Assembly: GCA_051294905.1 (NCBI GenBank)
Contig: CM119371.1
Coordinates: 17,300,001 to 17,364,000, forward strand
From: Botryllus schlosseri
Taxonomy: Eukaryota
Reading direction: 5' to 3'
DNA length: 64,000 nucleotides
The notes beneath the pieces are model-generated. The model saw only the letters and a program-made list of their open reading frames with translations. It had not been told where the DNA came from and did no database searches. The position numbers were made by a program, and so were the translations under genes. This document shows positions 17,739 to 59,307 of the stretch, piece after piece (positions within the stretch are counted from its first letter, which is position 1; every line of letters begins with the position of its first letter).

Positions 17739-18339
17739 CAAAGGGTTCTCCAACTTGGGGCGTGAAAGCATCTGCAGGGGGGTAGAAAGCTGTGGTCAAC
17801 TGAATAATTTTTTCGCGCTTCACGCGATTTACCTCCAATGCATAGTTATTCATCTGTGGATAGTCTGAATTTCATACTTAAGAATTCTATCATCAACAGT
17901 CATAACCTTCCGTGTTATCTAGGGATACCATACGTCCTCTTTTAAGAGGATTTGTCGTCTTTTTTGACTATTTTGAAAATGTCCTCTGAGAATTCTGGTA
18001 AAATGTACATGGAAATTGATAGAGATAAAAAAAAAATCAGCGGCCAAGTAACGGTCCGACGAAGTTTTCGGGACGTGAGCCTGAAAAATAACTTATTTTT
18101 TAATCAAATCGGGAAAAATTTACCATGTTTTTTTTGTTGTATTACCCCAGTATTGTAAGTCTGAAATTTTTTAAAAGTGTCCTCGTTTCGGATTTCCAAA
18201 ATATGGTAACCCTAGTGTTTTAACACTATCCGTTGGGATTGCATGCATTCTGGTTACATTTTTGGATATGACGATCAGGGGGCGTGAAATTTTTCACGAT
18301 CATAAAGGGGGCGTGTCTAAAAACGTTTGAGAAACACTG
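17739..18339. mobile_element. hAT MITE carrying a nested tagggttaccatac-family MITE (17920-18214)
   Basis: Outer ends caaagggttctccaac/gtttgagaaacactg; inner TIR tagggatacc/ggtaacccta with flanks gtgttatc/gtgtttta. Confidence 0.7.
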
Positions 18340-18351
18340 GTTGGCCTATAT

Positions 18352-19212: not shown

Positions 19213-19234
19213 GCCTATATACTGTATACTATAT

Positions 19235-20808
19235 CAGTGGTTCTCAACCTTTTTCACCTCGCGGACCGGTAAAATTTCAGAAGATATTTGGCGGACCGGC
19301 GGACCTTAAAAATTGAAATCAACCCCAAATGTAATGTATGCAGCCTTTTTTTGCTATTCACGGCCGCATTTCGATTACTTATACGGCCTACGGCCATATT
19401 CCAGGACATAGTAGCAGTGGACTAACTTGACATCAAATACCCATGTTAAACTGTCCATGTCCATTTCTTGTGAACTCCGGACTAATCTCTTTATGCATAT
19501 CGTCTTACTATATGCATCGAAATCAGCACATAGTGGTCATGTTATGAATAATGACTGGGACCGGTGATGGTAGTGCGAAGCGCGAAAATTTTTCTTATTC
19601 ACAAATGAATGTCGCCAAAATATTCGTAGTTTCACATCTTACTATTAAATATTTATCCTTTCTTAACCAAAGTGATTCAACCAAAATTTATCGGTAGAGT
19701 TGGTAGTGAAAGTGATGTCGAAAATTTAGAACATATGATGATGAATCTTCGGGTGGGCCAATTTTTAGTATAGTCACTTTGGGGCGTGTTGTAGTATAGT
19801 CACTTTGGGGCGTGTTGTTATTTCTTGACCTCCAATCAGGTTGTCGGTATAGTGGACATATGTTGGAATCTCCACAACGTACCAGAAACATTTTTTTTCG
19901 TAAGGAGTGCACGATTCGAAATTGTTATTTCCACATGGTGTGCATCATTTTCCTCCACTGTTCTCATTTGTGTGGGGCTCGGATTGTGAAGGGCGCTAGC
20001 TACGACTATATTAAAATCGAAAAATGTAGTCGCATTGAATCGCGCCTATCGCGAAGAAAATTTCAAGGTTAAGCAAAATATCTCAAATTCGGGAGTCAAT
20101 TCATTAACTAAATTTTCATGTCCACGGTCGCACAAATTTCCTTTTACGGCCGCAGGTTGGCCATCCCTGTACTAGAGAGTGAAATTGCGAGGGTTTTGTT
20201 CGTAATAAAATATGTTTATGATGGTATTCATTTGATTTTACCGTACTGTCTGCTGAGTGCTGAGTGAAATTGACTTGCCCAGATAAACATAGGCAAATTT
20301 CGCGCCGAAGGGCGTGGATTAAAACCGACCACGCCAACTGGAATAATATTCTTCTCTTCGACAACATCCAGAGATCAAGCGTTTTGTAGTAGGACCAAGC
20401 ACATTTTCGAGCTACCTTGCTCATTTCCCACCACTGCCATACGTAGCCTACTACGAGTACAATGCACCGCACGAACACACCTGATTACAGCGATACCTGG
20501 CCATCCATAAAATTAATGAATCGAGAACGAATGAGCGTACGGATTGTGCGGTTGGCGAGTCAGCTTGTACTTAGCGAGTCGTTAACATGTCGTTACCGGG
20601 GACAGCTTGGACTTTAAGTGAAATCGAACATGTTTCTGGACCTAACATTACCGCACGAAGTTCTGCATCGGTTTAAAATTTCACCTTTTATTATTTTACC
20701 AATGGACAAGCCTTCAACTTCTTGCATCTTGAAATTAAGGTATAAGATCTTACTATACATCGCGGACCGGCAGAAAAGTCGTCGCGAACCGGCGGTTGAG
20801 AACCACTG
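19235..20808. mobile_element. hAT MITE (composite)
   Basis: TIR cagtggttctcaacc/ggttgagaaccactg; TSD tactatat/tattatat. The internal segment ~19530-20169 resembles 60440-60830. Confidence 0.8.
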
Positions 20809-20825
20809 TATTATATAGTATATAG

Positions 20826-21398
20826 CAGGGTTGTAATGACTCGACTCGAGTCAGACTCGAGTCACGATTTTCGGATGACTCGACTCGACTCGAGTCATTT
20901 TCTCAAAATACGGAAATGACTCGACTCGACTCGAGTCAATCTGTGTATTGACTCGACTTGGACTCGAGTCATTGCGCATGACTCGAAACAAGTCATTGAC
21001 TCGAGATTCAGACGACCAAGACCTACATTTCATTGTAATTTCGAAGCCAACACATTATTGGGATTTCGTTTGTTGGTACTGCTGCTTGAAAATGCGACCA
21101 CAAACTGCTAAAAGTGAGGAAAATTGATATATTATAAATGCGAACCATTCAATATCACCAAACAGAGTTAAAAAAAGTGGGTTTAGGAAGACTTTAACTG
21201 GAATCTGAGCAGTCAACACAATGACTTGGACTCGGACTCGAGTCATTATACCATGACTCGGACTCGATCCTCTATTCGCTGACTTGGACTCGGACTTGAC
21301 TCGGTGGGAATTGAAAATGACTCGACTTGACTCGAGTCAAAAATATAGAAGTGAGATTGACTTGTGACTCGGAGCCTTGTGACTTGGTTACAACGCTG
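20826..21398. mobile_element. hAT MITE, gactcgagtc family (inverted relative to the 12195 copy)
   Basis: cagggttgtaa...ttacaacgctg; perfect TSD gtatatag. Confidence 0.85.
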
Positions 21399-29661: not shown

Positions 29662-30375
29662 ATATAATTGTATATGGAAGTTCTATACCTCCAAAGAGCT
29701 CTCGAATAGAAGTTGTTAAATAAGTATCGCAGGCACCATTATTGACTGCTCTGAAAACGGCCCTATTGTGTAAAGCAGGGCTACTCAACTGGGGGACCGA
29801 GGTCCGCACGCGGAGCCTTTCGGCGTTATCGCGGTCTCCGTTCTTACTTAGTTTTGATAAAAACCAAATCTATTATACGCCATTTCAGCTGTGAGTCAGC
29901 GTTTTCGACAATGAACTTTATAGGGAATAGATTTCGCCTCTGTATCAACACTGACCAGGCCAGTGATAACCGTCACCATTGCCTTCTACGCACTCTCACG
30001 ACTTTCCAATCAATATTTGAAGAAGTGGCAAGAAATAAATGATATATAAATTCTTGCTGCAGCTGTGACTAACAGATTCACTTATTGCTCTTGGTAATAC
30101 CGATTTACTGGAAGATAGCTATACCGTATTATACATTTGCATGATTGTAACTTATTTCATGAGCGTCATAATGGACCTCTTATCAATTCTTACAGTTATA
30201 AAGCTGGATATTGGCTAAGCTTAGATGGGTAGCCCGGACTTTGATAATATATAGCTACATCTGATCGCTTTGAGAATGTTCTGGTTGGTGTGAACGCGAT
30301 CATTTTGTAACGCACGTGACGTCATATTGTTAATTCCAACCCTACATTTCCGTAAAGTCATATATTATTATAGAC

Positions 30376-32123
30376 CAGAGGTCTCAAACTCAAATGTGCT
30401 CGCGGGCCAATTGCTTAGTTTGGATGACGCCGCGGGCCGCACCACCAATAACAGGGATATTCAACGCAGAATTTCCAAGTAGGCCTTATTTGACGGGAGC
30501 TTGAAGACAGACATTCCAGAAACATCATGAATATGTAATTTACTATTGTACTATTCACGCTTGACACGGAAAAAATCATATTCTCAAATATTTGAATAAA
30601 ATTGATTTTGTGCCGGGCATTATGTGTTCAAATAATGAGTTATAGACACCATGCGAGAGGATGCATCATGACCAATGTTTCCCCCAAGCTGTGCACGTGC
30701 GCAAATGCGCAGAGCTGACCAGGTCTCTGCGCACAAAAAATCTAGGTTGTGCACAAAAAAATTCGAAGTGATGACATTTTTTTAGTCGTTTTAGTGTTGT
30801 CCAAGGGTCTGCGCAGTGAGTTAGCGAGTCTGGGCAGATGCGTCAAAAATTAGAGGGAGCATTGCTCATGACATCGTCAAACTGTCGGGTTATAATATTG
30901 CAGCCAGTGCACCTTTGACGTGCCACAATTTTATGTACAATATTTTAAAATCTATACTGAAGATTGATCTGATATCAGAGCATTTGAGCGGTGTAGCATA
31001 ATCCGGGTTACGATATAGCCGTGATAAGTAGGCTATTGTTACTATGTAATTGCCAAAGTCAAATTAAATAAGCGTCAGATTTTGCCTTCGATTATTATTG
31101 GAACATATCAATAACACCTTGAATATAATTATTATTGAGCCACAGTAATAGCATTGTTTCTTAACCTTAGCGATCGTACCTATCGTGCTTCCAATAAGAT
31201 TTCTCGTAGCCCCTGTTCATTTTCAACACAATTTCTGATTGTACCTATATATTAAAAATGGAAAGCCCATACACATAAAATCACGGAGTAGCGCGGAGAC
31301 CATTTTCCAGTTGAGTAAATTGGTCAAAAATATTCCCAAGCATAGGCCTAATTCCACAATGCATATCGTAGGCTACCCCATGATGTGGTGCTCCGTATCC
31401 CGGAGGGGTCTACAGACCCTGGTTAAGAATAGAAATGTCCAATCGCCCATGAATTCATTGGTGTTACAGCTGTGGAGCGTACCTTACTCGCAACCGATAA
31501 TAATATGGATAAAGAGATCGGACAACACCCAGCATTTAACCAATCATACGCCACGGGGTCACATAATGCCAATGGTTGCCATACTGACCTGATTAGATAG
31601 CTACCCTACGCAACGCAAGCTACCACCTTTTGATATATGACTATTCCCCGTGACAGTTTCATAGATTGTTACGTCCGTAGGATTGCAAAGTCACCGTTCC
31701 GCGTCGCAAGTCCTTCACCGAATTTAACGTTTGACTCGACTCAACTCGATTCATTTATATTTAGTCACCCCGTCAATCCGAAATCGAGTAATTTTACGAA
31801 AGATTGCACAAAACCAAATCACAATATTTTCAGTCACGAATCATCAACGGGTCATGTTTTATCATCATGGACTAGAAATGTGACGTAAAACTGATCTTCC
31901 ACCGCATGGTAGCTTTTAAAAGTGATGTGATAGTGTAGTTTGTTGAGATTTCAGTGTTTTATAGTAGTTTTAGGTTGAACTTCAAGTTCTTATATCTAAA
32001 AAAGAGATGTGTGGCACTGTAATATATTGTCGAATACTTGAAATTCCAAAATGCCGTGGCGGGCCGCACAAAATGCTCTCGCGGGCCGCATGCGGCCCGC
32101 GGGCCGCGTGTTTGAGACCTCTG
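30376..32123. mobile_element. hAT MITE (cagaggtctcaaac family), with nested MITE 30673-30864
   Basis: Perfect TSD ttatagac; nested element TSD atcatgac/ctcatgac. Provides the empty site for the Polinton insertion. Confidence 0.85.
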
Positions 32124-42314: not shown

Positions 42315-43719
42315 GTAGGAATTGTGTCTGACAAAGTAGGTGCATAGAAATAACTAGGTTGGGAGTTTATCCTTACAGGAATATTACGAGTTATCCGGTA
42401 CTGCTGTGTTGTTAACAGTAAACATACATACGCACACGCTCGCCGCGACCCAATAACGTACGGTGTTCTGTATTTCGCGATTTCACGTAGCACTGCTTGA
42501 CTACTTCGATTGGATACAGATCAAAATCGTGGCCTGGATAGACCAGAGGTCTCAAACGCGGCCCGACAGAGCATTTTGTGCGGCCCGCGACGACATTTTA
42601 AATTTTTATTAATTTGACAATATATAAGAGTCACATATATCTTTTCAGGTTATAAAGTGAAAATTCCCTCTTAATGCTCCGAAATCCTGAAACTATTCAT
42701 CAAACTCCACTATCACATCAATTGCAAACGCTACCATGCAGTGGAAGACTTACTAATTCGCCACATTTCCAATTCATGATGACAAAACCTGACCCTGAGA
42801 CGATTCGCGACTCAAATTTGTCAGTTGGACTTGGACGCGACTCAGACTCGGGCTAGCTCGATGGCAAAATGAAAATGACTGGAGTGGACTCGGAGTGATT
42901 CGGAATGCCGTGAATTTGTTAGAACCATGGACGCATCAAACTAATCGCGTAGCCTATCAGGGGAATAGTAATAGATCAGATGGTCGCAGCTTGGTATTTC
43001 GCTAACTAAGCAAGTAGTTATGGCAACCAGTGGCAATCTGTAAGTTACATCTTTGGTCGCTATACCACGTTATTAAGGTTACTTAAAGGTACCGAGTACA
43101 GTAGTGGTACGCTCCAATGATGTAACAACAATTGGCCGTTCGGCGTTTAGATATTCCAATCACTAGGACACATTCATTAATATATCTATATTATATCTAT
43201 ATTTTTTCTGCTCCTATATTTAAAGATATTTGGCCATGAGATTAATAGCCTACTTAAGTACTTATCAGAAGTATACCCGAATCCAGGATTGGAATTACAA
43301 TCCTCAACCTAAAAATGTTTTGATATCAGATCATCAGTCTCTATTATCAATCTGTTAAATTTAAGATATTCATAGTAGCTGCAAAATTATAACCCGATAG
43401 CTTTTATGGTGGCATTATGCATTTTCTGCCCATATGGTGTCTATATCTCATAATTATTATATATCAAGTATACAACAACAATTCTATTCCAGTAGTTATA
43501 AATGTGACGATTCTTTTGGTGCCAAGCCCAAACTGATACAAGAGTTAATCACATTTTGACGATGTGTGTTTACTGTCAGTCTGCTGGGTCGGCTCACTTT
43601 CAATAGGACAATTCATTCATGCCAAAGAAGGCCTACTTGGAAAGATATAGAATACCCCTATAAATGCAGCGGCCCGCGGCAGTAGTATATAGGATCGGTC
43701 TGGGGGTGGCAGGGGCTCT

Positions 43720-44780
43720 TATGGGCCCGCTCGCATGTCGCATGGAAAACTCGTGTTGGCATATCGCGCTTTTAGACCCCCCTATCGCTCGCACATCGCC
43801 ATTGGTTCTTATGGGTGCGCTCGCATGTCGCACTTTCCGGTATAGGCATCTCTCACACATCGCATGGAAAACTCGTGTTGGCATATCGCGCTTTTAGACC
43901 CCCCTATCGCTCGCACATCGCCATTGGTTCTCATGGGTGCGCTCGCATGTCGCACTTTCCGGTATAGGCATCTCTCACACATCGCATGGAAAACTCGTGG
44001 TGGCATGTCGTACTTTTGGGTATAGGCGGTGGCGGTGATTCGCCTAGGTAATATTTTGGTAATTAGTTTACCACAGAGCCGGCGTAGACGGCGATTCGAA
44101 TATCAGCAATAACCGCGTTCACAAACTAACACTTCAAAAATGTGTGAAATAGTTTGCAAAACCCCGCGATCGCTGACAAGATAATGTCTCGGACATAACC
44201 ATCTTTCGCGACTTGGTGTTACAGGCACATCGATCGCTCACGCGGTGAAATATTCGTAAGCATCACTCGCAGAATTATATTTTGGTAATTATTTTGTCAC
44301 AGAGCCGGCGTAGACGGCGATTCCAACACCAACAATAACCGTGCACATAAACTAACACTTCAAAAAAAGGTGTGAAATATTTGTAAAATGCTACGATCAC
44401 TCACAAGATAATGTCCCAGACATAACCATCATTCGTGACTTGATGTTACATACATACCAATCGCTCACAAGGTAATATTTTGATAGTTTGGTACGGAACT
44501 TGATTTCACTCGTAAGATTTATTAAGTAACGAATAACAGACCGCCAGTGTCGGTAACTTGAATAGCGACAAATTGTCACTTATTTCCGCTCTAACCCTAA
44601 TCCTTTGTGAAGTGAACGCTTATTCAAAAGGGTGTGATATAATTTTAAAATCCAACGACCACTCACCGGATAATGCTTCAGACATAGCAATCCCTCATAC
44701 CCGCTCACAAGGTAATATTTCGGTAATTAGTTTGTCACAGAACCGTCGCAGGCGGTGATTCGAAAACCGACAATTTGTCA
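43720..44780. repeat. Tandem repeats in the Polinton terminus (122-bp unit x~2.3, then ~200-240-bp units); mirrored at 56740-58420
   Basis: cgcatggaaaactcgtg recurs at 43739, 43861 and 43983; ggtaatattt..taatt recurs near 44047, 44275, 44470 and 44710. Confidence 0.85.
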
Positions 44781-45179
44781 CTCGCCCGCGATCGCTATAT
44801 GTTTCACGCCTCCAGAATAGTGGCTGACTTTAGTTGCGTGATAAGATCCATGAAAATATTCAATCAATGTGTTAGTTTATCAACTTGAAATGAAACTCGC
44901 TACACAAATCAAGTCGATTCGTATCTGAATGTTTTAAATCGGTACAACTCTAATCCTTTGACAAATCCCTTAACGCGTTTTTGTTGAATCGAACGTAACC
45001 CGAATATTGCTGACGCCGACTTTCATCCGCATCGAATTATTCGCGCATTCCGCGCCACTGTTTTCACACTTATAGAATCAATACCAACTATAACTCTACA
45101 AGAATCAAGAATCACAAGTATGTGCATTACACAGTTATTGTCTTTATTAACTTGAAATCAAACACTTAACAAAAACACG

Positions 45180-48100
45180 CAACTAATCATTTGGCAACTC
45201 TAGCATTACCAAAAAATTCCAGTATTGTTGATTGAAAATCCTTGAGTCATTATTATCAAAAATGTTATAGTACCGCATCGGAATCCATTCGCGGGATGTA
45301 CTAAAGGTAAATCCAGATAATCCAAAATGGATTTGGACTTTGACAAACATGACTACCAACTTTGATCCAGTCACATTTCAAGATCATACTTTGAAACAAT
45401 CCTTGAAACTTACAACTCTATTCACGACTGAGTTTTCCGTTTATCAAATAGAGTTTCAGTAAATACTATCGCGATATTTTAATGTGTTACTACACACAAT
45501 AGAATCAATCAATGAAATAGCACCTGTTGTAAATATTTCTAACTTGACAACCACTTGTGCATACCGCGATCGACTTGTGACGCGATGAGTTAAATCGTAA
45601 ATCGGAATATTTCAATCTATTTGTCGAAACCTTGAACAAACTATCAGGTTATTTTTTGTTGTAATCGAGTGAACGGAAATAGTATTACGTCTCAACATTT
45701 TAACATCTTCCCATACACAAAAGAGTAAAATACAAAAAACCTTGTCAAGTCAATCCGTTTGTAACTTACCCAACCAAAGCAAAAAGTATCCTTATGAAAA
45801 GTAGACAAGACTACGCGAGTAATCACCACAATCCAAAATCCATAGCAAGTTCGGTTGTATTCATAGTCCACCAACTCGTATTTTTATTCAACTGTAAAAG
45901 TCGTTACTATTCCGCAAGACAAAGAAATTACTATGTGGTATATTTTGTAAGACAAAAGTAATTACCTCTCGGTGTCGGCGACTTGAGATTACCATATGTT
46001 TTGAGCATATGATATTTGAATGTCTGACCAACGTAGTTAAGAATTCATTTCGTACGATCGAACACCGGTATTACATTGAAAGTTATCATGCTGTAAACAT
46101 AAGGATTGACACATGGATTTGACATATGTAATAGTTGATCATGACTTGATTATTAAATTATTCGCGTTAATTAGACCCGGTGTTGCGGTAAAGGTTATTA
46201 TGACAGCAACAAACTTTTCACCACCGTGGTTATTAACATATTGATTCGTAAAACTATACTTGTCTGAAATGTTCTTGGTTTGAAAGATATTCCGTGTTGG
46301 TACAAATCACTCTGTGTATTACGGATATCAGAAAATATTTTTACAAATGTAGTTGTTTCCAGTAACCAAGACTAAAGGTGACACAACAATTTCGTTTGGA
46401 ATATCTTTACTGGACGCATCCTATTCTACTAGACTTGAGTAATACACAAAACTCATGGCATTAACAAAATCACAATAGGCGCTACACTGAAATCTACAAA
46501 ATGTGTTTGTATTGTTACTCAAAGTAGTGATCATAAATTATCATTTAAATAAGTAATTGTAATCATAAAACCAAACTTGTGAAAGTCATTACCATAACAA
46601 AAGAATATTGTAGGTTGCTTGCTAAATGTATGCCGGAAATATTTGTAGAACGCTCACGACCAAAGAAATCGGAAATTTCTCCCCATTGTCATTCGTCAAA
46701 GTATATGTTGTCACAATACTCATCCCGTAAAAGATCTTACTTGTATGTGATTGAATCGCCGGTAATTAACTCGCTAAATCAAACCATAAGGAAATTTCAC
46801 TCAGTCATCGGATTATGATATTAAACAGCGTCGCTTAATCGGCGTAGAGCGTTTTTCTAAATGCAAATCATACCTGACCAACAGAAAACAATTTTCACTC
46901 ACCTTGTAATGAAACCACACTGTTAAAAATATTCTATGCCAAATTACTGGTCTGGTCCTGGCAGCAGTTTTACGACTCTGAGACCAGTAAATTTGAAAAA
47001 TATTTTCCCGTAAATATTATTGACCGTAATTTATTTTTACAAAGACTGACTGTTAAAATTTTTACGGAAAATTCCCGTTACCTGATGTAACGGAAAACGG
47101 CTGTAATACCAAGTTACTGGTCTAGTCCAGTGCAGCAGTTTTACGCTGATGAGACCAGTAAATTCGAAATAACTCTCCCCGTAATATGATTTTACATATG
47201 CTGACCGTAGGAAATTTTACGGAAAATTTCCGTATCCTAAGGTAACAGAAATCTGCTGTAATATCAATATACTCGTCTGGTCCCTTGCAGCAGTTTTACG
47301 TTCCTGAGACCAGTAAATTTGAATCAGGTTTATTTGGTGCAGGAACACGTAAAAAAAAGTAAGTGTGGATAATGACGAAAATCCAGTCTTTCTTGTGGAG
47401 ATCATCGGTCAGCAACTGCCTGAATGAAGAAGGCTTCATCAAAACTTCAGCAGCAGTTGAAGGACTGTACTTTGGGCCATGCTTTTTTGTAGGTTCTTCT
47501 TTAATCTGAACAAAGATTATGCTGTCATCAACACCGTTAAAATTTGGAAACTTTGAGATGCTATAGTATGACATACTGCGACTTTTCATATTCTTGTCAA
47601 TTTCTTACATAATGATGGCCTAGGATAGCGATGTCGAACATAAGGCCAGCAGGCCGCATGCGGCCTGCGAAGCAATTCTGAGTAGTTTGAAAAACCCCTG
47701 TATTACCCAGCACATTTTCTAACAAATGTTGAGATATTATTGTAAGAAATGCTTCCCGCAAGGCCACAAATGTCAAGATCATAGACCGTGATATAATTAT
47801 CCGACAGTGGTGTTATGGTTTTACTCTAGTCATCATCAGGAACAAGTTGGTGATACTGACATCCAATTCCAAAAACTCCAGAAAGTGCACACTGAGTTCA
47901 TATTTTTATGAAGAAATGAGCCAAAAAGTAGTTATTCGTGAAGTGAAAAAAAACTGTTATATGCAGGTCGCATGGAAAATATAATAGTTATAAAAAATAC
48001 AATTCAAATATATTTGGTCGCACTGCTGTATCACTTCTACTGTAAGGCCCCAGACAGACAGAGAAACCCGAATGACGATTAATAATGAGCCACATTCTAA

Positions 48101-51100
48101 CGTCTGCGTTTACAATTAAATCACTTGTGTTCCTCAAAGCGCATACGATGAGTTAACGGCAGATTACGATTAAAACAAAGGGAGCATACAAATATGTCAG
48201 CTTATTCCGTGGTTAGAGTCAGTGTTTAAGCGGTTGAATTCAAACGATCAATCTTTGAATTTTTGCCAAACTTCCGTTGTTTGCGAGTAAAGGTGCTGCT
48301 AGAATATATCCATATGATATGATCGTGAATGTTATGTAATATACCAAAATGTATACAGGATTGATAATAAACTATTTAAGCGAAAAGTAAGGTCGGGCGT
48401 TTTGATGTACCTTAACATTTTGGAATGATTTGACTGATCCGGCCCGCGAGCGGTTTGAAAGTTTGAATCTGGCCAGCGACGCAAGTTGAGTTTGATACGG
48501 ATACCCTTGGCCTAGGACTTCGTACCTGAATCATCTTTTCCAGCGTGATTGCAAACTTTTCTGGCAATACTCCTTTGCATCGCACGTCCAATGTATTTCG
48601 CACGGCATCGTGCTAGAAGCGAGAGGCGAAATGATCCCTTTCTATCACATAAGCATTCGACGTCATGATTCATAATGCCATAACGCTTCCCTTTTCGTGT
48701 AGTTCAATGTCAGAAAATGTAATACATTCTTATAAGCCATAGCTTCTGTTCACCATTAAACTGTAACGAAAATACATACGTCTTCAGAAACAGGACTGAG
48801 AATAACTTGCCAGATTTGAGCTCGGATACTGCTATACCTACAATATCTGCTATCAACACCTGCAATATTCTAAAGCTAGAGTTAAGCTGTGGCATCGAAA
48901 CCCTCAATATCTTACAGCAACACATCTTGTTATTATCCAATACGAAAACATCGCGTCGATATAATATCTATCTCGGAACATTCAGCCGCACGTGCTCAGG
49001 CTCAGATATGTCTGACGTCTGACGCCACTATGTCTGGAAAATGTATGACGTCACAATGTACTGTTCGCTCGAGCAGCTACGAATTCATGATCAAACAATT
49101 CACAAGGCCATTCGCAGGAAAAAGGTAAAGGACGTCTACTACTCTCGTCTCAATGGCAAAGGAGCATGGCGGCTAAACACCAGTTCCAGTGTTTCGATAT
49201 ATAGTTTGCATCATACATGCGTTAAGGAGTCTACAATGGTGGCAGAACTGGTCCAACAGATAATTACACAAAAGATCATACCTGCAGTAAAACTACATAA
49301 CATACCAAATTCGCTTGCCATGCTACTATTGCTAGACCTTAATGTCTCAAAGGATACTATTTATGAAGCGATATAAACGATGGTATCTGCAATGCCCAAA
49401 TGTTCGGATACCATTCACCGATTAGCAATCAGCACGGCCATCGATGTCGTAATTTGGTTGATGATTGAAACATGATGTAATTACGAAAATCACATATATA
49501 TATGTACATAAGACCGTAAGCGTGTAAAATGATCGAACTGTGAGTTCAATAGCAATGTTGCAAATATTGATTATCCAGTAAATCGCTTTTACGAATGCCA
49601 AAGTAAATCCGGAATACTTATTATCCAGTTAATTGCTTTTACAAATCCAAAAGTAAATCTGAAATACTGGTTATCCCGTAAATTGCTTCTACGAATTTAA
49701 TCTGTAATTTTTTTACCCTCTAAAAACAAGTAAATTTACTTTTGACGTGCCCGTATATTAATTTAACGGGCATTTACCGTTAATATAACTGACGGGACAA
49801 ATTTACCGGTATAATTTGGGTAAATCTACGAATATTTCTAAGAGTGCAAGTGGTGGACCTTCGTTCAATATTTTGTTTGTGTCAAATACTTTGCAATAAA
49901 CACACACACTGGAGTGGTTGAGCTTTACATCATCAAGCTGTCATCTGTAAATCGAGATCACATCCGACTTGTAACTGTATCGTTTACCTAACCGAGTTGT
50001 ATGCACAGTTTCATATTTTTATCATTTAGTGATTGCTGAACATACCAAACGATACACATTCACTTCCGAAATACTGCGTTGATCTCAATTCCCTTTGTCG
50101 TGATAACCGAAGTACATTTGTTTCGAATTCGTAACAGCCGACTTTTCTATGACACGATAAATTTTGACAAGTTATGCTTAGAAGATTGGTTGCATATCGC
50201 GAAAAATAACATACTGCTCATATTGATACTGTTAATCGGTATCTTCACGTGAGTCGATTTTCAAATGAGTAAAATTTATTACATGAGTTTCTCCGCTTAA
50301 TGTAAATGAAAACTCAGTCGTCTTTTAACATCACAAAGACATTGATAAAAAGTAAGCAATCAAACACAACACTTTGTACGACACTAATTATTGTTCCACA
50401 CATCTCATTTCATACTAAGTGTATACGAAAGATATTCATGTTACACGAAAATATTCGCTCATGCTACAAACCTGTACAATGATTGGTGGTGTAAGTCCAG
50501 CACAATTGTGGTATCCATACGAGGTTAGTTAACACAATTTACGACACCGAGGTCGCCTCATCCTTCGTAAGACAACAAACCAAGGCTTCAGGATATGTCC
50601 ATGTCATAACAATAAATCAGCTACTCCAACAACAGAGTACATATGTTTTCTAGCACGGTGCTTACATCTTACACACAAATCAACCTACTTTGCTAACGAA
50701 AAGTGCTGAGTCATCACATGGTTGTCCTCACAACAATACAACTAAAACATACTATCATACAAAATGGCCGTTATAGTTTGCACACCAACGATACATCGTA
50801 CAAGTAGCAAGTCTCGAGAATCCAGTTATTCAAAAAACGTGAAAGTGTTTCTACGCCAAGTCGGTATGTTGACGAAAGCATATATTGTAATATCATGATC
50901 GATTTACATTCGTTGGTCACAAAATGTCACTACTCTAAATAATTATTTTTCACTCAAAGCCTACTTGTCACCATTCGTTTCATCAAGCACGAGTTTAAGA
51001 AACCTGCTACGACATGAATTGTTTATGTTGTGTAAATAGGTAATAATTAATTTTAGTAACACTATATCAACATCATCGAGTTGCGCGAATAAATTTACAT

Positions 51101-51340
51101 GTGGTCTTGTGGTTTTAATCGAAGTATACAGCACGGTCTAATGTAGAGTCATCTCTACTGTACAGCAACTCGGTAATCGAAATGTATTAAAATTTAAACA
51201 ACGATCTTGTTTCGTCGCACCAAAAATATGTTTACTATCGCGATACTCTGCACAGGCCGTGTAAATCCTTTTCACACTCGTAATAGTATGCCAACAGCGA
51301 CCGGCGACAACGTTTAACAATACCAACGACACTAAACATA
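45180..51340 (-). pseudogene. Decayed protein-primed DNA polymerase B, left arm (split by the EnSpm insertion)
   Basis: Reverse complement of 53100-56333 with essentially the same lesions. Confidence 0.6.
46918..49846. mobile_element. EnSpm/CACTA-type DNA transposon in the left arm only; nested hAT MITE 47626-48509
   Basis: TIR cactgttaaaaatattc/gaatatttctaagagtg; 2-bp TSD CA shown by the empty site in the right arm (54590-54605); subterminal repeats. Nested element TSD gcctagga. Confidence 0.85.
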
Positions 51341-51880
51341 CGATACCTACCCAAGTAAAATTACCATTTTCACCTGGAGGTCGGTCGTTACCCGAGTAGA
51401 AATACCATTGTCCTTTGGAGATTTATCGTTTACCCAGTGTAACAAACCCCTTTTCCTTTGGAAATCTATTTTTTCTCTGGTTAACAAACCTTTTTCACTT
51501 GGAAATATATTTTTTCTCTGGGTAACAAACCTTTTTCACTTGGAAATATATTTTTTCTCTGGGTAACAAACCTTTTTCACTTGGAAATATATTTTTTCCC
51601 CGGATAACAAACCTTTTTCCCTGAGCAACAAACCATTTTCACTTGGTGGTCCGTCGTTTACCCGAGTAAAAATATCATTTTCTTTTGGAGATCCGGCGTT
51701 TACCCAGTGTAACAATACATTTTCACTTGGAAAAATACTTTTACCTAGAGTAACTAATCATTTTCTCCTGGGTAACAAACCCTTTTCGTCTGGAAACTAT
51801 CATTTACCTGAGTACCAATACAGTTTTCACTTGGAAATCTACCTTCTCCATGGGTAACAATATCATTTTCGTTTTGAAAA
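51340..51880. repeat. 39-41-bp minisatellite, left arm
   Basis: Unit aacaaacctttttcacttggaaatatattttttctctgggt at 51483, 51524 and 51565, plus diverged copies. Confidence 0.9.
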
Positions 51881-52569
51881 CTGACAACCACACCGGACAA
51901 TTTGATAGTTTTGAACATGAATTTGTTTTCCATGATGTTTGTACACCGACAAATTGTATGTACACCTCGTCTACGTGAATACTTGTGAACAATCGTGACG
52001 TACTTGATGTGTAATGTCTTGTTATTTTCATGGAGACACAGGGTGTAACATGTTTACTTGAATATTGGTCGTTGGTTCATGAGTGAATATCCGGATCAGG
52101 CCCCCACACACTTTCTCGTATTAGTGATCCGGTTTCAGCTGACTGGAGCGACATGTATTGATCAGTAAAGACACAATATAGTAAACAGACCTGAGGAAAC
52201 TCACAAGTAACCCGGAGTTGTTAGCGCGATGGGGAACATAAATTCATTATCCGTGTATCAACCAGCTACCAAAGTCGAGGAGGTGTTTTATTCAGACATT
52301 TTGACTCTGGAAAATCCAAAGCACGAACCCGGACATCACGGACATATCGGAAACCCCTTTATCCGCCAATTCCGAAAACATACATGTCGATGTACAACAG
52401 CTCATTGTTATTGTATGTGAGTAACCAATGATTTTGATGGGATGCATCAGAGCAAGTGAATATTTGATTAGACAAATGTATCGGAGTCGTGGTTGGTGTA
52501 TATTTTGTCACTGCCCGTTGTAACAATATACAAAACTATCAAATTGTCCGGTGTGGTTGTCAGTTTTCA

Positions 52570-53100
52570 AAACGAAAATGATATTGTTACCCAGGGAGAA
52601 GGTAGATTTCCAAGTGAAAACTGTATTGGTACTCAGGTAAATGATAGTTTCCAGACGAAAAGGGTTTGTTACCCAGGAGAAAATGATTAGTTACTCTAGG
52701 TAAAAGTATTTTTCCAAGTGAAAATGTATTGTTACACTGGGTAAACGCAGGATCTCCAAAAGAAAATGATATTTTTACTCGGGTAAACGACGGACCACCA
52801 AGTGAAAATGGTTTGTTGCTCAGGGAAAAAGGTTTGTTATCCGGGGGAAAAATATATTTCCAAGTGAAAAAGGTTTGTTACCCAGAGAAAAAATATATTT
52901 CCAAGTGAAAAAGGTTTGTTACCCAGAGAAAAAATATATTTCCAAGTGAAAAAGGTTTGTTAACCAGAGAAAAAATAGATTTCCAAAGGAAAAGGGGTTT
53001 GTTACACTGGGTAAACGATAAATCTCCAAAGGACAATGGTATTTCTACTCGGGTAACGACCGACCTCCAGGTGAAAATGGTAATTTTACTTGGGTAGGTA
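52570..53100. repeat. 39-41-bp minisatellite, right arm (mirror)
   Basis: Reverse complement of 51340-51880. Confidence 0.9.
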
Positions 53101-56100
53101 TCGTATGTTTAGTGTCGTTGGTATTGTTAAACATCGTCGCCGGTAGCTGTTGGCATACTATTACGAGTGTGAAAAGGATTTACACGGCCTGTGCAGAGTA
53201 TCGCGATAGTAAACATATTTTTGGTGCGACGAAACAAGATCGTTGTTTAAATTTTAATACATTTCGATTACCGAGTTGCTGTACAGTAGAGATGACTCTA
53301 CATTAGACCGTGCTGTATACTTCGATTAAAACCACAAGACCACATGTAAATTTATTCGCGCAACTCGATGATGTTGATATAGTGTTACTAAAATTAATTA
53401 TTACCTATTTACACAACATAAACAATTCATGTCGTAGCAGGTTTCTTGAACTCGTGCTTGATGAAACGAATGGTGACAAGTAGGCTTTGAGTGAAAAATA
53501 ATTATTTAGAGTAGTGACATTTTGTGACCAACGAATGTAAATCGATCATGATATTACAATATATGCTTTCGTCAACATACCGACTTGGCGTAGAAACACT
53601 TTCACGTTTTTTGAATAACTGGATTCTCGAGACTTGCTACTTGTACGATGTATCGTTAGTGTGCAAACTATAACGGCCATTTTGTATGATAGTATGTTTT
53701 AGTTGTATTGTTGTGAGGACAACCATGTGATGACTCAGCACTTTTCGTTAGCAAAGTAGGTTGATTTGTGTGTAAGATGTAAGCACCGTGCTAGAAAACA
53801 TATGTACTCTGTTGTTGGAGTAGCTGATTTATTGTTATGACATGGACATATCCTGAAGCCTTGGTTTGTTGTCTTACGAAGGATGAGGCGACCTCGGTGT
53901 CGTAAATTGTGTTAACTAAACTCGTATGGATACCACAATTGTGCTGGACTTACACCACCAATCATTGTACAGGTTTGTAGCATGAGCGAATATTTTCGTG
54001 TAACATGAATATCTTTCGTATACACTTAGTATGAAATGAGATGTGTGGAACAATAATTAGTGTCGTACAAAGTGTTGTGTTTGATTGCTTACTTTTTATC
54101 AATGTCTTTGTGATGTTAAAAGACGACTGAGTTTTCATTTACATTAAGCGGAGAAACTCATGTAATAAATTTTACTCATTTGAAAATCGACTCACGTGAA
54201 GATACCGATTAACAGTATCAATATGAGCAGTATGTTATTTTTCGCGATATGCAACCAATCTTCTAAGCATAACTTGTCAAAATTTATCGTGTCATAGAAA
54301 AGTCGGCTGTTACGAATTCGAAACAAATGTACTTCGGTTATCACGACAAAGGGAATTGAAATCAACGCAGTATTTCGGAAGTGAATGTGTATCGTTTGGT
54401 ATGTTCAGCAATCACTAAATGATAAAAATATGAAACTGTGCATACAACTCGGTTTGGTAAACGATACAGTTACAAGTCGGATGTGATCTCGATTTACAGA
54501 TGACAGCTTGATGATGTAAAGCTCAACCACTCCAGTGTGTGTGTTTATTGCAAAGTATTTGACACAAACAAAATATTGAACGAAGGTCCACCACTTGGTT
54601 TCATTACAAGGTGAGTGAAAATTGTTTTCTGTTGGTCAGGTATGATTTGCATTTAGAAAAACGCTCTACGCCGATTAAGCGACGCTGTTTAATATCATAA
54701 TCCGATGACTGAGTGAAATTTCCTTATGGTTTGATTTAGCGAGTTAATTACCGGCGATTCAATCACATACAAGTAAGATCTTTTACGGGATGAGTATTGT
54801 GACAACATATACTTTGACGAATGACAATGGGGAGAAATTTCCGATTTCTTTGGTCGTGAGCGTTCTACAAATATTTCCGGCATACATTTAGCAAGCAACC
54901 TACAATATTCTTTTGTTATGGTAATGACTTTCACAAGTTTGGTTTTATGATTACAATTACTTATTTAAATGATAATTTATGATCACTACTTTGAGTAACA
55001 ATACAAACACATTTTGTAGATTTCAGTGTAGCGCCTATTGTGATTTTGTTAATGCCATGAGTTTTGTGTATTACTCAAGTCTAGTAGAATAGGATGCGTC
55101 CAGTAAAGATATTCCAAACGAAATTGTTGTGTCATCTTTAGTCTTGGTTACAGGAAACAACTACATTTGTAAAAATATTTTCTGATATCCGTAATACACA
55201 GAGTGATTTGTACCAACACGGAATATCTTTCAAACCAAGAACATTTCAGACAAGTATAGTTTTACGAATCAATGTGTTAATAACCACGGTGGTGAAAAGT
55301 TTGTTGCTGTCATAATAACCTTTACCGCAACACCGGGTCTAATTAACGCGAATAATTTAATAATCAAGTCATGATCAACTATTACATATGTCAAATCCAT
55401 GTGTCAATCCTTATGTTTACAGCATGATAACTTTCAATGTAATACCGGTGTTCGATCGTAAGAAATGAATTCTTAACTACGTTGGCCAGACATTCAAATA
55501 TCATATACTCAAAACATATGTTAATCTCAAGTCGCCGACACCGAGAGGTAATTACTTTTGTCTTACAAAATATACCACATAGTAAGTTCTTTGTCTTGCG
55601 GAATAGTAACGACTTTTACAGTCGAATAAAAATACGAGTTGGTGGACTATTAATACAACCGAACTTGCTATGGATTTTGGATTGTGGTGATTACTCGCGT
55701 AGTCTTGTCTACTTTTCATAAGGATACTTTTTGCTTTGGTTGGGTAAGTTACAAACGGATTGACTTGACAAGGTTTTTTGTATTTTACTCTTTTGTGTAT
55801 GGGAAGATGTTAAAATGTTGAGACGTAATACTATTTCCGTTCACTCGATTACAACAAAAAATAACCTGATAGTTTGTTCAAGGTTTCGACAAATAGATTG
55901 AAATATTCCGATTTACGATTTAACTCATCGCGTCACAAGTCGATCGCGGTATGCACAAGTGGTTGTCAAGTTAGAAATATTTACAACAGGTGCTATTTCA
56001 TTGATTGATTCTATTGTGTGTAGTAACACATTAAAATATCGCGATAGTATTTACTGAAACTCTATTTGATAAACGGAAAACTCAGTCGTGAATAGAGTTG

Positions 56101-56333
56101 TAAGTTTCAAGGATTGTTTCAAAGTATGATCTTGAAATGTGACTGGATCAAAGTTGGTAGTCATGTTTGTCAAAGTCCAAATATTTCATTTTGGATTATC
56201 TGGATTTACCTTTAGTACATCCCGCGAATGGATTCCGATGCGGTACTATAACATTTTTGATAATAATGACTCAAGGATTTTCAATCAACAATACTGGAAT
56301 TTTTTGGTAATGCTAGAGTTGCCAAATGATTAG
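53100..56333 (+). pseudogene. Decayed protein-primed DNA polymerase B, right arm
   Basis: Motif relics in Polinton-PolB order across frames: DLLLVRCIV (like D.LCLARAIV), DMQP (54246), CYEFET (54308, like FYDFET ExoI), CAYN (54437, like IAHN ExoII), KVFDT (54552, like FIDS), YQHG, VGG, DYSRSL (55689, like DxxSLYP), VKVQ..FG.SG (motif B-like). Confidence 0.6.
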
Positions 56334-59307
56334 TTGCGTGTTTTTGTTAAGTGTTTGATTTCAAGTTAATAAAGACAATAACTGTGTAATGCACATACTT
56401 GTGATTCTTGATTCTTGTAGAGTTATAGTTGGTATTGATTCTATAAGTGTGAAAACAGTGGCGCGGAATGCGCGAATAACTCGATGCGGCTGAAAGTCGG
56501 CGTCAGCAATATTCGGGTTACGTTCGATTCAACAAAAACGCGTTAAGGGATTTGTCAAAGGATTAGAGTTGTACCGATTTAAAACATTCAGATACGAATC
56601 GACTTGATTTGTGTAGTGAGTTCCATTTCAAGTTGATAAACTAACACATTGATTGAATATTTTCATGGATCTTATCACGCAACTAAAGTCAGCCACTATT
56701 CTGGAGGAGTGAAACATATAGCGATCGCGGGCGAGTGACAAATTGTCGGTTTTCGAATCACCGCCTGCGACGGTTCTGTGACAAACTAATTACCGAAATA
56801 TTACCTTGTGAGCGCGTATGAGGGATTGCTATGTCTGAAGCATTATCCGGTGAGTGGTCGTTGGATTTTAAAATTATATCACACCCTTTTGAATAAGCGT
56901 TCACTTCACAAAGGATTAGGGTTAGAGCGGAAATAAGTGACAATTTGTCGCTATTCAAGTTACCGACACTGGCGGTCTGTTATTCGTTACTTAATAAATC
57001 TTACGAGTGAAATCAAGTTCCGTACCAAACTATCAAAATATTACCTTGTGAGCGATTGGTATGTATGTAACATCAAGTCACGAATGATGGTTATGTCTGG
57101 GACATTATCTTGTGAGTGATCGTAGCATTTTACAAATATTTCACACCTTTTTTTGAAGTTCGCTTCGACGAACTTACGCGTAAGCTCCACCCTCGCTCGC
57201 TGCGCATACATGTGTGTATAATACCATACAGCCACTAAAATTTGATGTATGTGAGCATGTAGTGGGGAATCTCGGAAGACCGGGGCCGGCGGGCCATATT
57301 ATCATGTGAGACGAAAAACTGTCCGCGGGCCGTATATTGCCCGCCCCTGGTCTATGTCTTTCCAAGTAGGCCTTATTTGGCGGGAATTAATTGTTCTATT
57401 GAAAATGAGCCGATCCAAAAGACTGACAGTATCGTCAAATGTGATTTACTCTTGTATAAATTCAGGCGTGGCACGAAAAGAATCATCACATTTATGACAC
57501 ATTTATGTGCACGGTTATTGTTGGTGTTGGAATCGCCGTCTACGCCGGCTCTGTGACAAAATAATTACCAAAATATAATTCTGCGAGTGATGCTTACGAA
57601 TATTTCACCGCGTGAGCGATCGATGTGCCTGTAACACCAAGTCGCGAAAGATGGTTATGTCCGAAACATTATCTTGTCAGCGATCGCGGGGTTTTGCAAA
57701 CTATTTCACACATTTTTGAAGTGTTAGTTTGTGAACGCGGTTATTGCTGATATTCGAATCGCCGTCTACGCCGGCTCTGTGGTAAACTAATTACCAAAAT
57801 ATTACCTTGGAAGTGACTCCTAGATTTAGCAAACTATTTCGCACTGAATGGATTAGTGTAATAATCGATAGTAGCACGCATTTGGCCGGGAAACAATTCC
57901 GCACGCAGGTCATTCGAAATATAGGTCGCACTGCTTAATCCTCACAACAAGCCACGTTTCCGTTTGTGCGGTTATTGTTGGTGACTCGTACATATTCAAC
58001 ACCGCGCGAGAGATGCCTGAAAGTGCGAATCACGACCGCACCCATAAGAACACATGGCGAATCACCACAGATCCTGTAAGAATACACGACAGGCGAATCA
58101 CCGCCACCGCCTATACCCAAAAGTACGACATGCCACCACGAGTTTTCCATGCGATGTGTGAGAGATGCCTATACCGGAAAGTGCGACATGCGAGCGCACC
58201 CATAAGAACCAATGGCGATGTGCGAGCTATAGGGGGGTCTAAAAGCGCGATATGCCAACACGAGTTTTCCATGCGATGTGTGAGAGATGCCTATACCGGA
58301 AAGTGCGACATGCGAGCGCACCCATAAGAACCAATGGCGATGTGCGAGCGATAGGGGGGTCTAAAAGCATGATATGCCAACACGAGTTTTCCATGTGACA
58401 TGCGAGCGGGCCCATAAGAACCCCTGCCACCCCCAGACCGATCCTATATACTACTCGCGGCGTCGTCAAAACTGGAAATCTGGCCCGCGAGCACATTTGA
58501 GCTTGAGACCTTTGGGACAGACTGAGGTTGACGAGTTCATAATTGCATAAATTCATATTACTGCGCACATAGACGGTGAGTAGATCTTAGCGAAGGTGGC
58601 GAACATTTTTTTAGTAAACAGCACGTCAAATTAATAGGTGGGCCGCGGTAAATTGTCATCTCAAAATGTGTGGTTGCAACCATAAAAAGGTCAGAAACGC
58701 CTGCAATATAGACAAATTTCGTATGCAATGTTTTTAGCGAAGCTAGCACTTTTATCGAAGGACCAAGTGGTTTTTAACCTTTTCCCTCCAGCGCCCATTT
58801 TATTAATGTTGCCTAGGTCTGGCACCCGACATATTTTAAGAACTGTAGTATAGTACAAGCGGGGGGAGGTTGATGTCCGGTCGATCTTTTCGTATTGGGA
58901 CTTTATACTATTGGAAATATTTCGCACTTGAATCGAGCGCGAGGACCAGTAGATTAATTAACGATATAATAATTCAATGTGTAATATTCACAATCGAATC
59001 ACTCATGTTCTCGATTTTGCCCAGCCCTAGTTAAGAACCATTGGAATAACGGAAAAAATTGACAAAAGTTATTTTTGAACAACTCTAATGTATTGTATAT
59101 ACAATATACATACACTGTACAAATGTATATACACAACACAGCTATGCCTATATTTATTACGATTGATATATATATGTAAGTCTATTTTTTCGAGCCGGCC
59201 TGTCGAAGTCAGCATGAATACAGATTGGTTATCACTTTCTAATTTCCGGTATTTTAATAGTCATTGCCGAAAGCAGTGGTGACCACCACATTGGTCACAG
59301 GGTAGAC

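Follow-up and report, generated by a model that had tools for sequence, protein, structure and literature searches.

Giant palindromes with Polinton/Maverick-type ends in Botryllus schlosseri: a damaged copy and its relatives

Two kinds of described systems come close to a palindrome with transposon ends. Foldback transposons (FB, Galileo and Tetris of Drosophila, TU of sea urchins) are dominated by a pair of long inverted arms containing tandem subrepeats; they carry few genes, reach high copy numbers and tend to nest, and those of the FB, P and MULE type have target site duplications (TSDs) of 7-9 bp. Protein-primed replicons, in turn, are known for concerted evolution of the inverted repeats within one element, and snap-back defective genomes exist among adenoviruses.

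In the account of vertebrate Mavericks in PMC8097293, the ends read (AGT)2//(ACT)2, the TSD measures 6 bp and the inverted repeats span 46-1,447 bp, whereas the treatment of anole Polintons in PMC3014272 gives fewer than 10 copies and describes no non-autonomous forms. In its discussion of protein-primed replicons, PMC11886824 considers a panhandle, or homology-restoring, model, for which it states that direct evidence is lacking.

The element described here lies in a 64,000-nucleotide stretch of Botryllus schlosseri DNA (the window). It shares with autonomous Polintons the (AGT)2...(ACT)2 ends, the 6-bp TSD and terminal inverted repeats with subterminal repeats, but lacks their polymerase, integrase, ATPase and capsid genes. 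The palindromes to which it is related have arms of 6-7 kb, compared with the 46-1,447 bp that PMC8097293 gives for Mavericks and with 714-784 bp in conventional elements of this genome, and their copy number is very high relative to that given for anole Polintons in PMC3014272. Taken as a whole, the window copy is probably an old and damaged member, devoid of genes, of a highly abundant family of non-autonomous palindromic Polinton/Maverick derivatives.

Insertion site, arms and damage of the window copy

The 14.8-kb element (43681-58455) starts with AGTAGT (43681-43686), ends with ACTACT (58450-58455) and is bordered by CGCGGC at 43675-43680 and, in direct orientation and adjoining the ACTACT end, at 58456-58461, so that the coordinates given for both tips in the initial annotation hold. 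The host of the whole element is a MITE, of which flank alignments reveal an unoccupied minus-strand paralogue at 30375-30492. The left flank (43623-43643) aligns to 30492-30472 of this paralogue and the right flank (58456-58515) to 30434-30375 on the minus strand, from its first base and with 87% identity over 61 columns; the single CGCGGC earlier noticed in the sibling MITE is found at 30429-30434, where it reads gccgcg on the plus strand. The element entered this site as one discrete unit and duplicated 6 bp of target. Because CGCGGC is direct on both sides and not self-complementary, inverted duplication in situ is disfavoured, an argument first made in the initial annotation and judged sound.

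The left arm (43681-51913, including a nested transposon) and the right arm (52531-58455) pair in four collinear inverted blocks: 43681-44045 with 58455-58091 (98.4%), 44046-44351 with 57807-57502 (99.7%), 44357-46917 with 57159-54596 (99.2%) and 49847-51913 with 54597-52531 (99.5%). Together these comprise 5,302 aligned columns, 35 of which are mismatched, and stricter chaining yields 5,309 columns with 36 mismatches (0.68% divergence). The inverted identity does run from the tips to 51913 and 52531, as first described, but the paired part measures ~5.3 kb per arm, at 99.3% identity, rather than ~5.6 kb. By its length and identity, this inverted repeat is far beyond chance. Each arm contains a subterminal 122-bp tandem repeat (2.3 copies, 43738-44017, mirrored at 58119-58395), a periodicity that also occurs in the inverted repeats of the conventional element C4b, and, at its inner end, 41-42-bp tandem arrays (51439-51870, mirrored at 52565-53005). 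Most of the element thus consists of long inverted arms in which tandem subrepeats lie, as in foldback transposons.

The arms differ by several rearrangements. A 2,929-bp transposon with CACTG...GAGTG ends and a 2-bp CA duplication is nested on the plus strand of the left arm only (46918-49846), the right arm being uninterrupted at the opposite position (54596/54597); by hand count, at least 29 of the matches listed elsewhere span its positions 1-2929 or 3-2929 at 94-99% identity. The 283 bp at 57808-58090 of the right arm are deleted from the left at 44045/44046 and are uninterrupted in copy C8a, which aligns in one piece with positions 14419-15275 of the WIN sequence (window copy). Comparison of the arms further reveals a 342-bp stretch in the right arm only (57160-57501), replaced in the left by the 5 bp gttag; it holds a MITE of the host family, with 57351-57495 being 82% identical to the left flank at 43498-43651. 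These differences bear on whether the inverted duplication was created falsely during assembly by a foldback chimera. Chimeric long reads can produce palindromes, and the read check did not bridge the palindrome centre, but the nested transposon, two indels and 36 substitutions between the arms, the clean TSD with its empty paralogous site and the like-arranged termini found more than a thousand times across all large contigs make such an artefact hardly credible.

The 617 bp between the paired parts (51914-52530) had been taken as the spacer around which the palindrome turns. Its length and its unpaired state are as described, but in other copies the same stretch is paired: 36 of the 39 other full-length matches listed form 18 inverted pairs, ~1.08 kb apart. 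Since it occurs in both arms elsewhere, it is not the turn-round point; judged from this pairing, it is the innermost part of the right arm, a deletion remnant whose left partner is lost, and the true loop of ~1 kb is gone together with the innermost part of the left arm. In line with this reading, the inner blocks are spaced 1.64 kb apart in the window copy, compared with 3.3-3.8 kb in other copies, and the 80-mer across the 51913/51914 junction had no other full-length match among the best 40 scored of 1,328 candidates. After integration, the CACTG-ended transposon entered the left arm, 283 bp dropped from the same arm, and a deletion of ~1.7 kb took the loop and the left inner end, so that 617 bp in the right arm have no partner.

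The window copy has no ORF above 150 aa, and its 26 ORFs of at least 60 aa contain no Pfam domain. Searches with 61 ORFs of at least 60 aa gave no Pfam hit, apart from one sub-threshold chance hit, the Rfam search gave none, and tblastn with the ORF products of the conventional elements C4b and C2b found no match in the window copy beyond the terminal zone. PolB, integrase, ATPase, protease and capsid genes of its own were not found. Having no genes of its own, the window copy can only be a non-autonomous derivative, and its integration must have been in trans, as had been proposed from the start.

The palindromic family and its conventional relatives

The terminal motif AGTAGT-N6-GATCGSTC occurs 2,286 times in the genome (1,148 forward, 1,138 reverse), against 0 and 3 for a control, which corresponds to roughly 1,100 elements. 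The family termini are spread over all large contigs, more than a thousand of them with the same layout; as the genome searches scored the best candidates only, such counts are lower bounds. Among the terminus matches listed, a hand count gave at least 17 other convergent pairs, 11-28 kb apart, and the first 100 motif rows included 39 convergent pairs, 34 of which carry the same variable hexamer at both ends. All 11 copies selected by similarity to the terminus of the window copy, itself included, are giant palindromes with arms 99.1-99.98% alike (divergence 0.015-0.91%), a proportion of palindromes that applies to this selection. Two conventional elements, C4b and C2b, were selected for an unpaired ORF with an OB-fold. 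All 13 family elements whose ends were read have (AGT)2//(ACT)2 ends, and 11 have a perfect 6-bp TSD, each of different sequence, while the duplications of the other two match at 5 of 6 positions. In intact palindromes, a loop of ~0.3-1 kb separates two arms of 6-7 kb each, the inverted repeats making up ~90% of the element. The window element very probably belongs to this mobile, palindromic, Polinton-ended family.

The initial annotation had proposed instead a one-off defective genome, formed when one Polinton end was duplicated by template switching and the product was integrated once. Its Polinton-like ends and TSD agree with such an event, and copies C12a and C7a do hold one Polinton end on both sides, so that copy-back may have founded the family. 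As an account of this locus, however, a unique copy-back product is most improbable: the palindrome is not a single copy among conventional relatives, since all 11 terminus-selected copies share the arrangement, and the relatives carry other TSDs; loops and their borders are inherited across diverged lineages; only ~0.35 kb of the arm in the window copy is Polinton-like; and the 617-bp spacer is a deletion remnant.

The conventional relatives encode a protein-primed PolB, an rve-chromo integrase and a packaging-type ATPase; in C4b, the domains found are PF03175 (E 1.8e-8), PF00665 (4.7e-16) with PF00385 (2.2e-9), and an AAA/A32-like ATPase. Their inverted repeats (784 bp in C4b, 714 bp in C2b) are 99.6-99.9% identical within an element and 80-90% between elements. 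The best 36 of 385 candidates scored in a PolB search are 92-100% identical, 23 of them without a stop, and none of these 36 lies in an inverted pair. C4b is the PolB- and integrase-bearing element with shared terminal sequence for which a search had been suggested: the terminal stretch of the window copy (43681-44030, mirrored at 58106-58455) matches the inverted repeats of C4b and C2b at 83-92% over ~310-350 bp. The shared stretch extends to ~640 bp at 92% in C8a and to 1.5 kb at 94% in C7a, so that palindromes and conventional relatives are alike over the first 0.35-1.5 kb only. In the window copy this is ~0.35 kb of a ~5.3-kb arm (~6%), and the remaining ~5 kb of each arm matches neither C4b nor C2b. 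The (AGT)2//(ACT)2 ends, the 6-bp TSD and the terminal homology support the assignment of the window element as Polinton/Maverick-ended, as first suggested from its termini, whereas the claim that its arms are one Polinton end holds, against C4b and C2b, for that terminal ~0.35 kb.

The same termini bear on a foldback transposon of another superfamily (FB, Galileo or TU type), moved by an unrelated transposase and merely resembling Polintons at its ends. Long inverted arms, tandem subrepeats (43738-44017 and 51439-51870) and few or no genes are what such an element would show. Yet over 0.3-1.5 kb the termini match elements with PolB and integrase at 83-94% identity, palindromes and conventional elements agree in their (AGT)2 ends and 6-bp TSDs, the 7-9-bp TSD of foldback transposons does not fit the 6-bp duplications, and ORF-carrying palindromes keep the terminal gene of the conventional elements at 95% nucleotide identity; this origin is therefore very unlikely. 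The palindromes also differ from foldback transposons in that their arms are mostly complex sequence rather than arrays of short repeats, and in that their likely helper would be an element with polymerase and integrase rather than a cut-and-paste transposase.

The terminal gene encodes a 214-aa OB-fold protein, of which some palindromes carry two intact copies. In C12a and C7a the Polinton end (inverted repeat plus OB-fold gene, 1.5-1.6 kb) is present on both sides, whereas in conventional elements the gene lies at one end only. As these relatives carry the polymerase-distal end twice, the family may have originated by copy-back.

An inherited plan, concerted arms and their proposed homogenization and drift

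Loop sequences connect copies whose arms have diverged. Over their whole length, the loops of C7a, C8a and C15a share 89-91% of their sequence and have identical borders; loop identity is 93% between C2a and C4a and 98% between C12a and C6a. The arms of such loop-sharing copies are 84.5-90.6% identical over 47-73% of their length. In an 852-bp block, on the other hand, the two arms are sister rows in each of 6 copies, with support of 99-100 or outright identity. As loop types and borders are common to copies with arms this divergent, comparison of the copies demonstrates, at the level of sequence, that the palindromic plan is inherited and that the arms evolve in concert. Near-identity within copies next to wide differences between them offers a clue to the way in which the elements replicate.

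Sporadic origin as fresh by-products was considered separately and is ruled out by the inherited loops and borders, given the divergence of the arms, and by the very large size of the family. The palindromes differ in this from snap-back viral genomes: they are integrated, inherited and, in an animal genome, amplified to roughly a thousand termini rather than by-products of one infection.

Judging from the shared ends and TSD, the PolB and integrase encoded by the conventional elements would replicate and integrate the satellites in trans. The (AGT)2 terminal repeat fits sliding-back initiation. The arms may be made alike again during propagation, most likely either because the displaced single strand snaps back, pairs and is corrected, or by a homologous template switch between the arms; both would act during protein-primed strand-displacement replication. 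Either route would extend to an entire arm the panhandle logic that has been put forward for adenovirus and PRD1. As with those replicons in the discussion given in PMC11886824, each molecule retains two identical ends even as lineages diverge, and self-pairing of a displaced strand would explain both replication restart and correction, but the self-pairing part would be 6-7 kb rather than about 100 bp.

Concerted arms are equally expected if gene conversion acts inside long-lived chromosomal master copies, for which sex-chromosome palindromes and plastid inverted repeats are precedents; arms separated by no more than 0.3-1 kb are well placed to convert each other, and the intact copy C6a, at 0.91% divergence, indicates that divergence need not be a clean clock. 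In the window copy, however, alignment of the left inner arm gives 2,672 bits with the right arm of the same copy and 2,641 and 2,626 bits with the nearest other copies, near-equal values by which the distance between its arms is about that to sister copies, as free drift after insertion predicts and efficient conversion does not. Additionally, arm-specific insertions and deletions persist in this copy, and the short inverted repeats of the conventional elements show the same concert as the long arms. Conversion of this kind is thus rather unlikely, and homogenization by replication rather than in the chromosome can be put at an even chance.

A fuller model, offered tentatively, is that of self-perpetuating palindromic Polinton satellites whose whole arms act as one enormous terminal inverted repeat, form a 6-7-kb hairpin in each round and are corrected there. 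Under this model, the two intact copies of the RPA-like OB-fold gene in one subfamily would supply or titrate single-strand-binding protein for the snap-back step, and the family would preserve, in a eukaryote and at genome scale, a natural record of the panhandle intermediate that has long been postulated for protein-primed replication.

After integration, the arms would drift apart like the LTRs of retrotransposons, which are identical at insertion and diverge afterward. The analogy concerns dating only, as the repeats of the palindromes are inverted rather than direct and the elements are DNA-based, without reverse transcription; on this reasoning, arm divergence (0.015-0.91%) can order insertions by age. 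The rearranged copies (C14a, the window copy and C3a) have arm divergences of 0.30-0.89%, and five of the eight intact copies are at or below 0.124%, with C6a the intact copy at the upper extreme; across copies, rearrangement and arm divergence are loosely linked.

Anatomy and decay of the window copy

The palindromic element in the window extends from position 43681 (AGTAGT) to 58455 (ACTACT), as read from its ends, and is bounded immediately outside both by the target-site duplication (TSD) CGCGGC in direct orientation. Self-comparison yields four collinear inverted blocks with 35 mismatches over 5,302 columns (36 over 5,309 under stricter chaining, a divergence of 0.68%), leaving an unpaired middle at 51914-52530. 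End reading and self-comparison thus bear out the Polinton-type ends, the direct duplication and the inverted arms described in the initial annotation, in which the palindrome was correctly recognized but its paired length overstated (about 5.3 kb per arm rather than about 5.6 kb). The host of the insertion is a MITE-like repeat (43498-43680 and 58456-58515), an empty paralogue of which, at 30375-30492, carries one CGCGGC, as had been noted for a sibling MITE near 30425-30440. The right flank aligns with 30434-30375 (minus strand) from its first base, and part of the left flank with 30492-30472.

The two arms have been damaged differently. The left arm contains a nested transposon of 2,929 bp (46918-49846), whose inverted ends read CACTG...GAGTG and which has a CA duplication of 2 bp, at a point where the right arm is unbroken. 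At least 29 full-length copies of this transposon occur elsewhere at 94-99% identity (hand count, among the matches listed); its longest ORF is at most 117 aa, and we take it to be probably a non-autonomous CACTA/Mirage-like element. A 283-bp deletion in the left arm is evident from the right-arm segment 57808-58090, which is unbroken in C8a, a related palindromic copy, and right-arm positions 57160-57501, which include a further copy of the host MITE family (57351-57495), stand opposite only 5 bp in the left arm. The 617-bp spacer, previously regarded as the centre of the palindrome, is instead a deletion remnant, since in other copies it belongs to both arms: of its 39 other full-length matches, 36 are arranged as 18 inverted pairs separated by about 1.08 kb. 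An 80-mer over the junction 51913/51914 found no second full-length match among the best 40 of 1,328 candidates, and the inner 1.5-kb blocks lie 1.64 kb apart in the window copy vs 3.3-3.8 kb in other copies. Taken together, the spacer pairs elsewhere, the unmatched junction and the short block spacing indicate that about 1.7 kb was lost, comprising the original loop (the unpaired middle) together with the innermost part of the left arm. Asymmetric central deletions are a known fate of long palindromes.

A search of raw-read runs for the window centre listed 24 runs with a maximum share of words of 0.29, none of the runs with matching words being recorded as RNA. Contigs from four runs gave only pieces of 50-190 bases against 51500-52950, with very high summed depth and no listed piece across 51913/51914 or 52530/52531. 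The window copy is an old, damaged and gene-less element, an ordinary decayed member of its family, and it is the family that is the object of interest.

A family of hairpin-shaped satellites

In the 495.5-Mb assembly (219 contigs), the first 365 bp of the window copy match 75 places, among them 17 further pairs in convergent orientation at distances of 11-28 kb (hand count), and the terminal pattern AGTAGT-N6-GATCGSTC occurs 1,148 + 1,138 times vs 0 + 3 for the reversed control, which therefore implies roughly 1,100 elements. These genome searches score the best candidates first, and several of the pair counts are hand counts from tables. Each of the ten terminus pairs that were fetched, like the window copy, encloses a giant palindrome, and in the intact copies among them (seven) the loop measures 332-990 bp. 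Divergence between arms is 0.015% in C15a, 0.044% in C12a, 0.10% in C11a, 0.124% in both C4a and C7a, 0.30% in C14a, 0.49% in C2a, 0.56% in C8a, 0.89% in C3a and 0.91% in C6a. All 13 elements that were read start with AGTAGT and end with ACTACT, and their 6-bp duplications are perfect and mutually different in 11, the remaining two matching at five of six positions. A large share of the genome's Polinton-type ends probably belongs to hairpin-shaped satellites of 13-15 kb, the palindromic copies having been sampled by similarity and not randomly.

A family of palindromes with different 6-bp duplications rules out rearrangement in situ and, in practice, an assembly artefact as well. The single-locus copy-back origin that had been proposed for the window copy is likewise not borne out, given palindromes in all ten relatives, distinct TSDs and an element number of the order estimated here.

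Other arrangements of these termini were encountered on the same contig. About 0.5 Mb before the window, G000:C1:16768420-16810257 contains three concentric Polinton-type terminus pairs (hand reading), each pair sharing a hexamer of its own (TATATA, TAAGTA and ATAGTC), which suggests three elements inserted one within another. Additionally, convergent terminal-motif pairs only 3.3 kb (G000:C1:19317205-19320506) and 6.6 kb (G000:C1:21592462-21599084) apart may represent miniature derivatives of the family.

Inheritance of the palindromic plan and correction of the arms

The loops fall into types with common arm/loop borders. Those of C7a, C8a and C15a (920-942 bp) are 89-91% alike end to end, those of C2a and C4a (978-990 bp) are 93% alike, and those of C12a (415 bp) and C6a (332 bp) are 98% alike; for the arms of these loop-sharing copies, only 47-73% of the length can be aligned, with 84.5-90.6% identity. 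For an 852-bp block taken from both arms of six copies, the two arms of each copy are sisters (support 99-100, or identical), with 99.3-100% identity within a copy vs 92.2-97.8% between copies. The variable hexamer of the terminal motif is equal at both ends in 34 of 39 convergent pairs (hand count, first 100 rows listed). As judged from these alignments, the arms evolve in concert on a palindromic plan that is itself inherited: an uncorrected palindrome would show arm differences as large as those between lineages, and these are not observed.

The family is a mosaic, with uneven conservation along the arms. The inner-arm 1.5-kb block is 97-99% alike in 37 of the 39 other matches scored and 94% in two; towards the outer ends of their arms, the sampled copies show only 75-92% identity or cannot be aligned, a pattern which suggests that modules have been exchanged between lineages.

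The step at which the arms are corrected is inferred from two comparisons. The left inner arm of the window copy scores 2,672 bits against its own right arm, close to the 2,641 and 2,626 bits that it scores against the nearest other copies, and the arms differ by 0.30-0.89% in three rearranged copies vs at most 0.124% in five of the eight intact ones. Both results point to arms that are corrected while the element propagates and drift freely once in the chromosome, rather than to conversion of the arms inside chromosomal master copies, which we consider unlikely. Polintons/Mavericks are thought to replicate like adenoviruses, and a racket-like single-strand model is said to have been put forward by Kapitonov and Jurka in 2006. 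For adenovirus and PRD1, it has been proposed that a displaced single strand self-pairs through its inverted ends, leading to restart and to restoration of homology, a model for which direct evidence is lacking, as the paper itself stresses (PMC11886824). This course is also the natural one for propagation-time correction of the satellites: arms of 6-7 kb would let the displaced strand fold back on itself as a complete hairpin, in which the two arms would become identical through repair of mismatches or through a switch of template from one homologous arm to the other.

Conventional relatives, a shared OB-fold gene and classification

Two conventional, gene-bearing elements of the same genome, C2b and C4b, were chosen for their unpaired copy of a 214-aa ORF (see below). 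C2b (15.6 kb; inverted repeats of 714 bp at 99.9%) and C4b (about 16.5 kb; 784 bp at 99.6%) are packed with long ORFs, and C4b codes for a 1,300-aa protein-primed PolB (PF03175, E 1.8e-8), a 359-aa rve integrase (PF00665, 4.7e-16) with a chromodomain (PF00385, 2.2e-9) and a 203-aa AAA/A32-like ATPase. Among the best 36 of 385 genome candidates for this PolB, all at 92-100% identity, 23 are stop-free and none form inverted pairs. What the palindromes have in common with the conventional elements is confined to the ends: in the window copy the shared stretch spans about 310-350 bp (83-92% identity), in C8a about 640 bp (92%) and in C7a 1.5 kb (94%). The link to Polintons is a direct one. Past this terminal zone, the ORF products of C4b and C2b find no match in the 11 palindromes, save for the 214-aa ORF in C12a and C7a. 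The Polinton identity of the palindrome stands for its ends, TSD and terminal sequence, the remainder of the arm having no match to those products. Pfam found no family in 61 ORFs of at least 60 aa (26 in the left arm and spacer of the window copy, 35 in the arm and loop of C15a), a single sub-threshold match (PF10621, E 0.007) being taken as chance, and no Rfam family reached its gathering score in window 43000-59000.

The exception is an ORF of 214-218 aa. In the conventional elements it adjoins one inverted repeat, facing outward, and encodes 217-218 aa (L031:1381-2034, minus strand; C2b 14589-15239, plus strand). Many palindromes carry it twice, facing outward; C12a and C7a have one copy per arm, 95% identical in nucleotide sequence to the conventional copies (L015:1466-2107, minus strand, mirrored in L016; C7a likewise; L numbers denote sequence pieces from family copies). 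In the genome, 347 candidates were found and the best 150 scored; every one of these is open, with identities of 92-100%, and at least 98 of them form 49 inverted pairs (hand count); because the search scores the best candidates first, intact copies are favoured in this count. The window copy lacks the gene: a tblastn search with the 214-aa ORF gave no match in the window. Three gap-free pairs gave dN/dS of 0.25-0.64, a weak estimate with only 13-20 changes per pair; pairs with C4b have one codon misaligned near the start. A 159-aa ORF at the same position in C8a is unrelated and broken in other copies, and was taken as non-coding.

The 214-aa protein has hardly any relatives by sequence search. 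A word-indexed search retrieved one, at 97%, and exhaustive HMMER three, namely one at 97%, a 1,510-aa protein (E 2.4e-5) and a 214-aa protein at 26% (E 1.4e-4); cluster look-ups gave no useful names, and Pfam returned only PF01336 (E 0.12). Overall confidence in the AlphaFold model is poor (pLDDT 54), and interpretation was therefore confined to residues 124-214 (pLDDT 70-91), which superpose on RPA-type OB folds with Z of 11.8-10.9 and rmsd of about 2.1-2.5 Å over 88-90 residues. The best full-length Foldseek match is the tandem OB of RPA70 (DBD-AB; E 7e-6), and atlas features agree with the OB-fold reading. A putative single-strand-binding role would suit strand-displacement replication.

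By its ends, TSD and terminal sequence, the palindromic family is a non-autonomous derivative of Polintons/Mavericks, whereas the window copy differs from an autonomous Polinton in having no genes. In shape it is a foldback element, its arms behave as the inverted repeats of protein-primed replicons do but at about ten times the length, and it differs from a sporadic copy-back genome in that its plan is inherited. To our knowledge, Polinton replication has never been directly watched, and abundant non-autonomous derivatives have hardly been described. Vertebrate Mavericks are described with (AGT)2//(ACT)2 termini, duplications of 6 bp and inverted repeats that measure 46-1,447 bp (PMC8097293), and an anole study gives non-autonomous forms as absent (PMC3014272). 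Literature searches, judged from titles and abstracts, returned no palindromic or foldback Polinton derivative. The satellites open three questions to testing: whether displaced single strands self-pair when Polintons replicate, in what way a virus-like transposon is exploited by satellites of its own, and whether inverted repeats of such length contribute to silencing of the helper by small RNAs. Additionally, arm divergence offers an LTR-like clock for dating insertions, and satellites of this kind, if unrecognised, will be mistaken in annotation for assembly artefacts or generic foldbacks.

The window holds further repeats. On the minus strand of 1-1944, two adjoining open frames encode a reverse transcriptase (PF00078, E 1.4e-21) and an RNase H (PF00075, E 5e-10) and, by these domain matches, constitute a retrotransposon pol fragment running off the window start. 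Positions 5515-6109 form a small hairpin-shaped repeat with arms of 293 nt, 94% complementary and 9 nt apart, and 12359-21234 (about 8.9 kb), bounded by inverted repeats of 164-184 nt at 82-94%, is possibly another DNA transposon.
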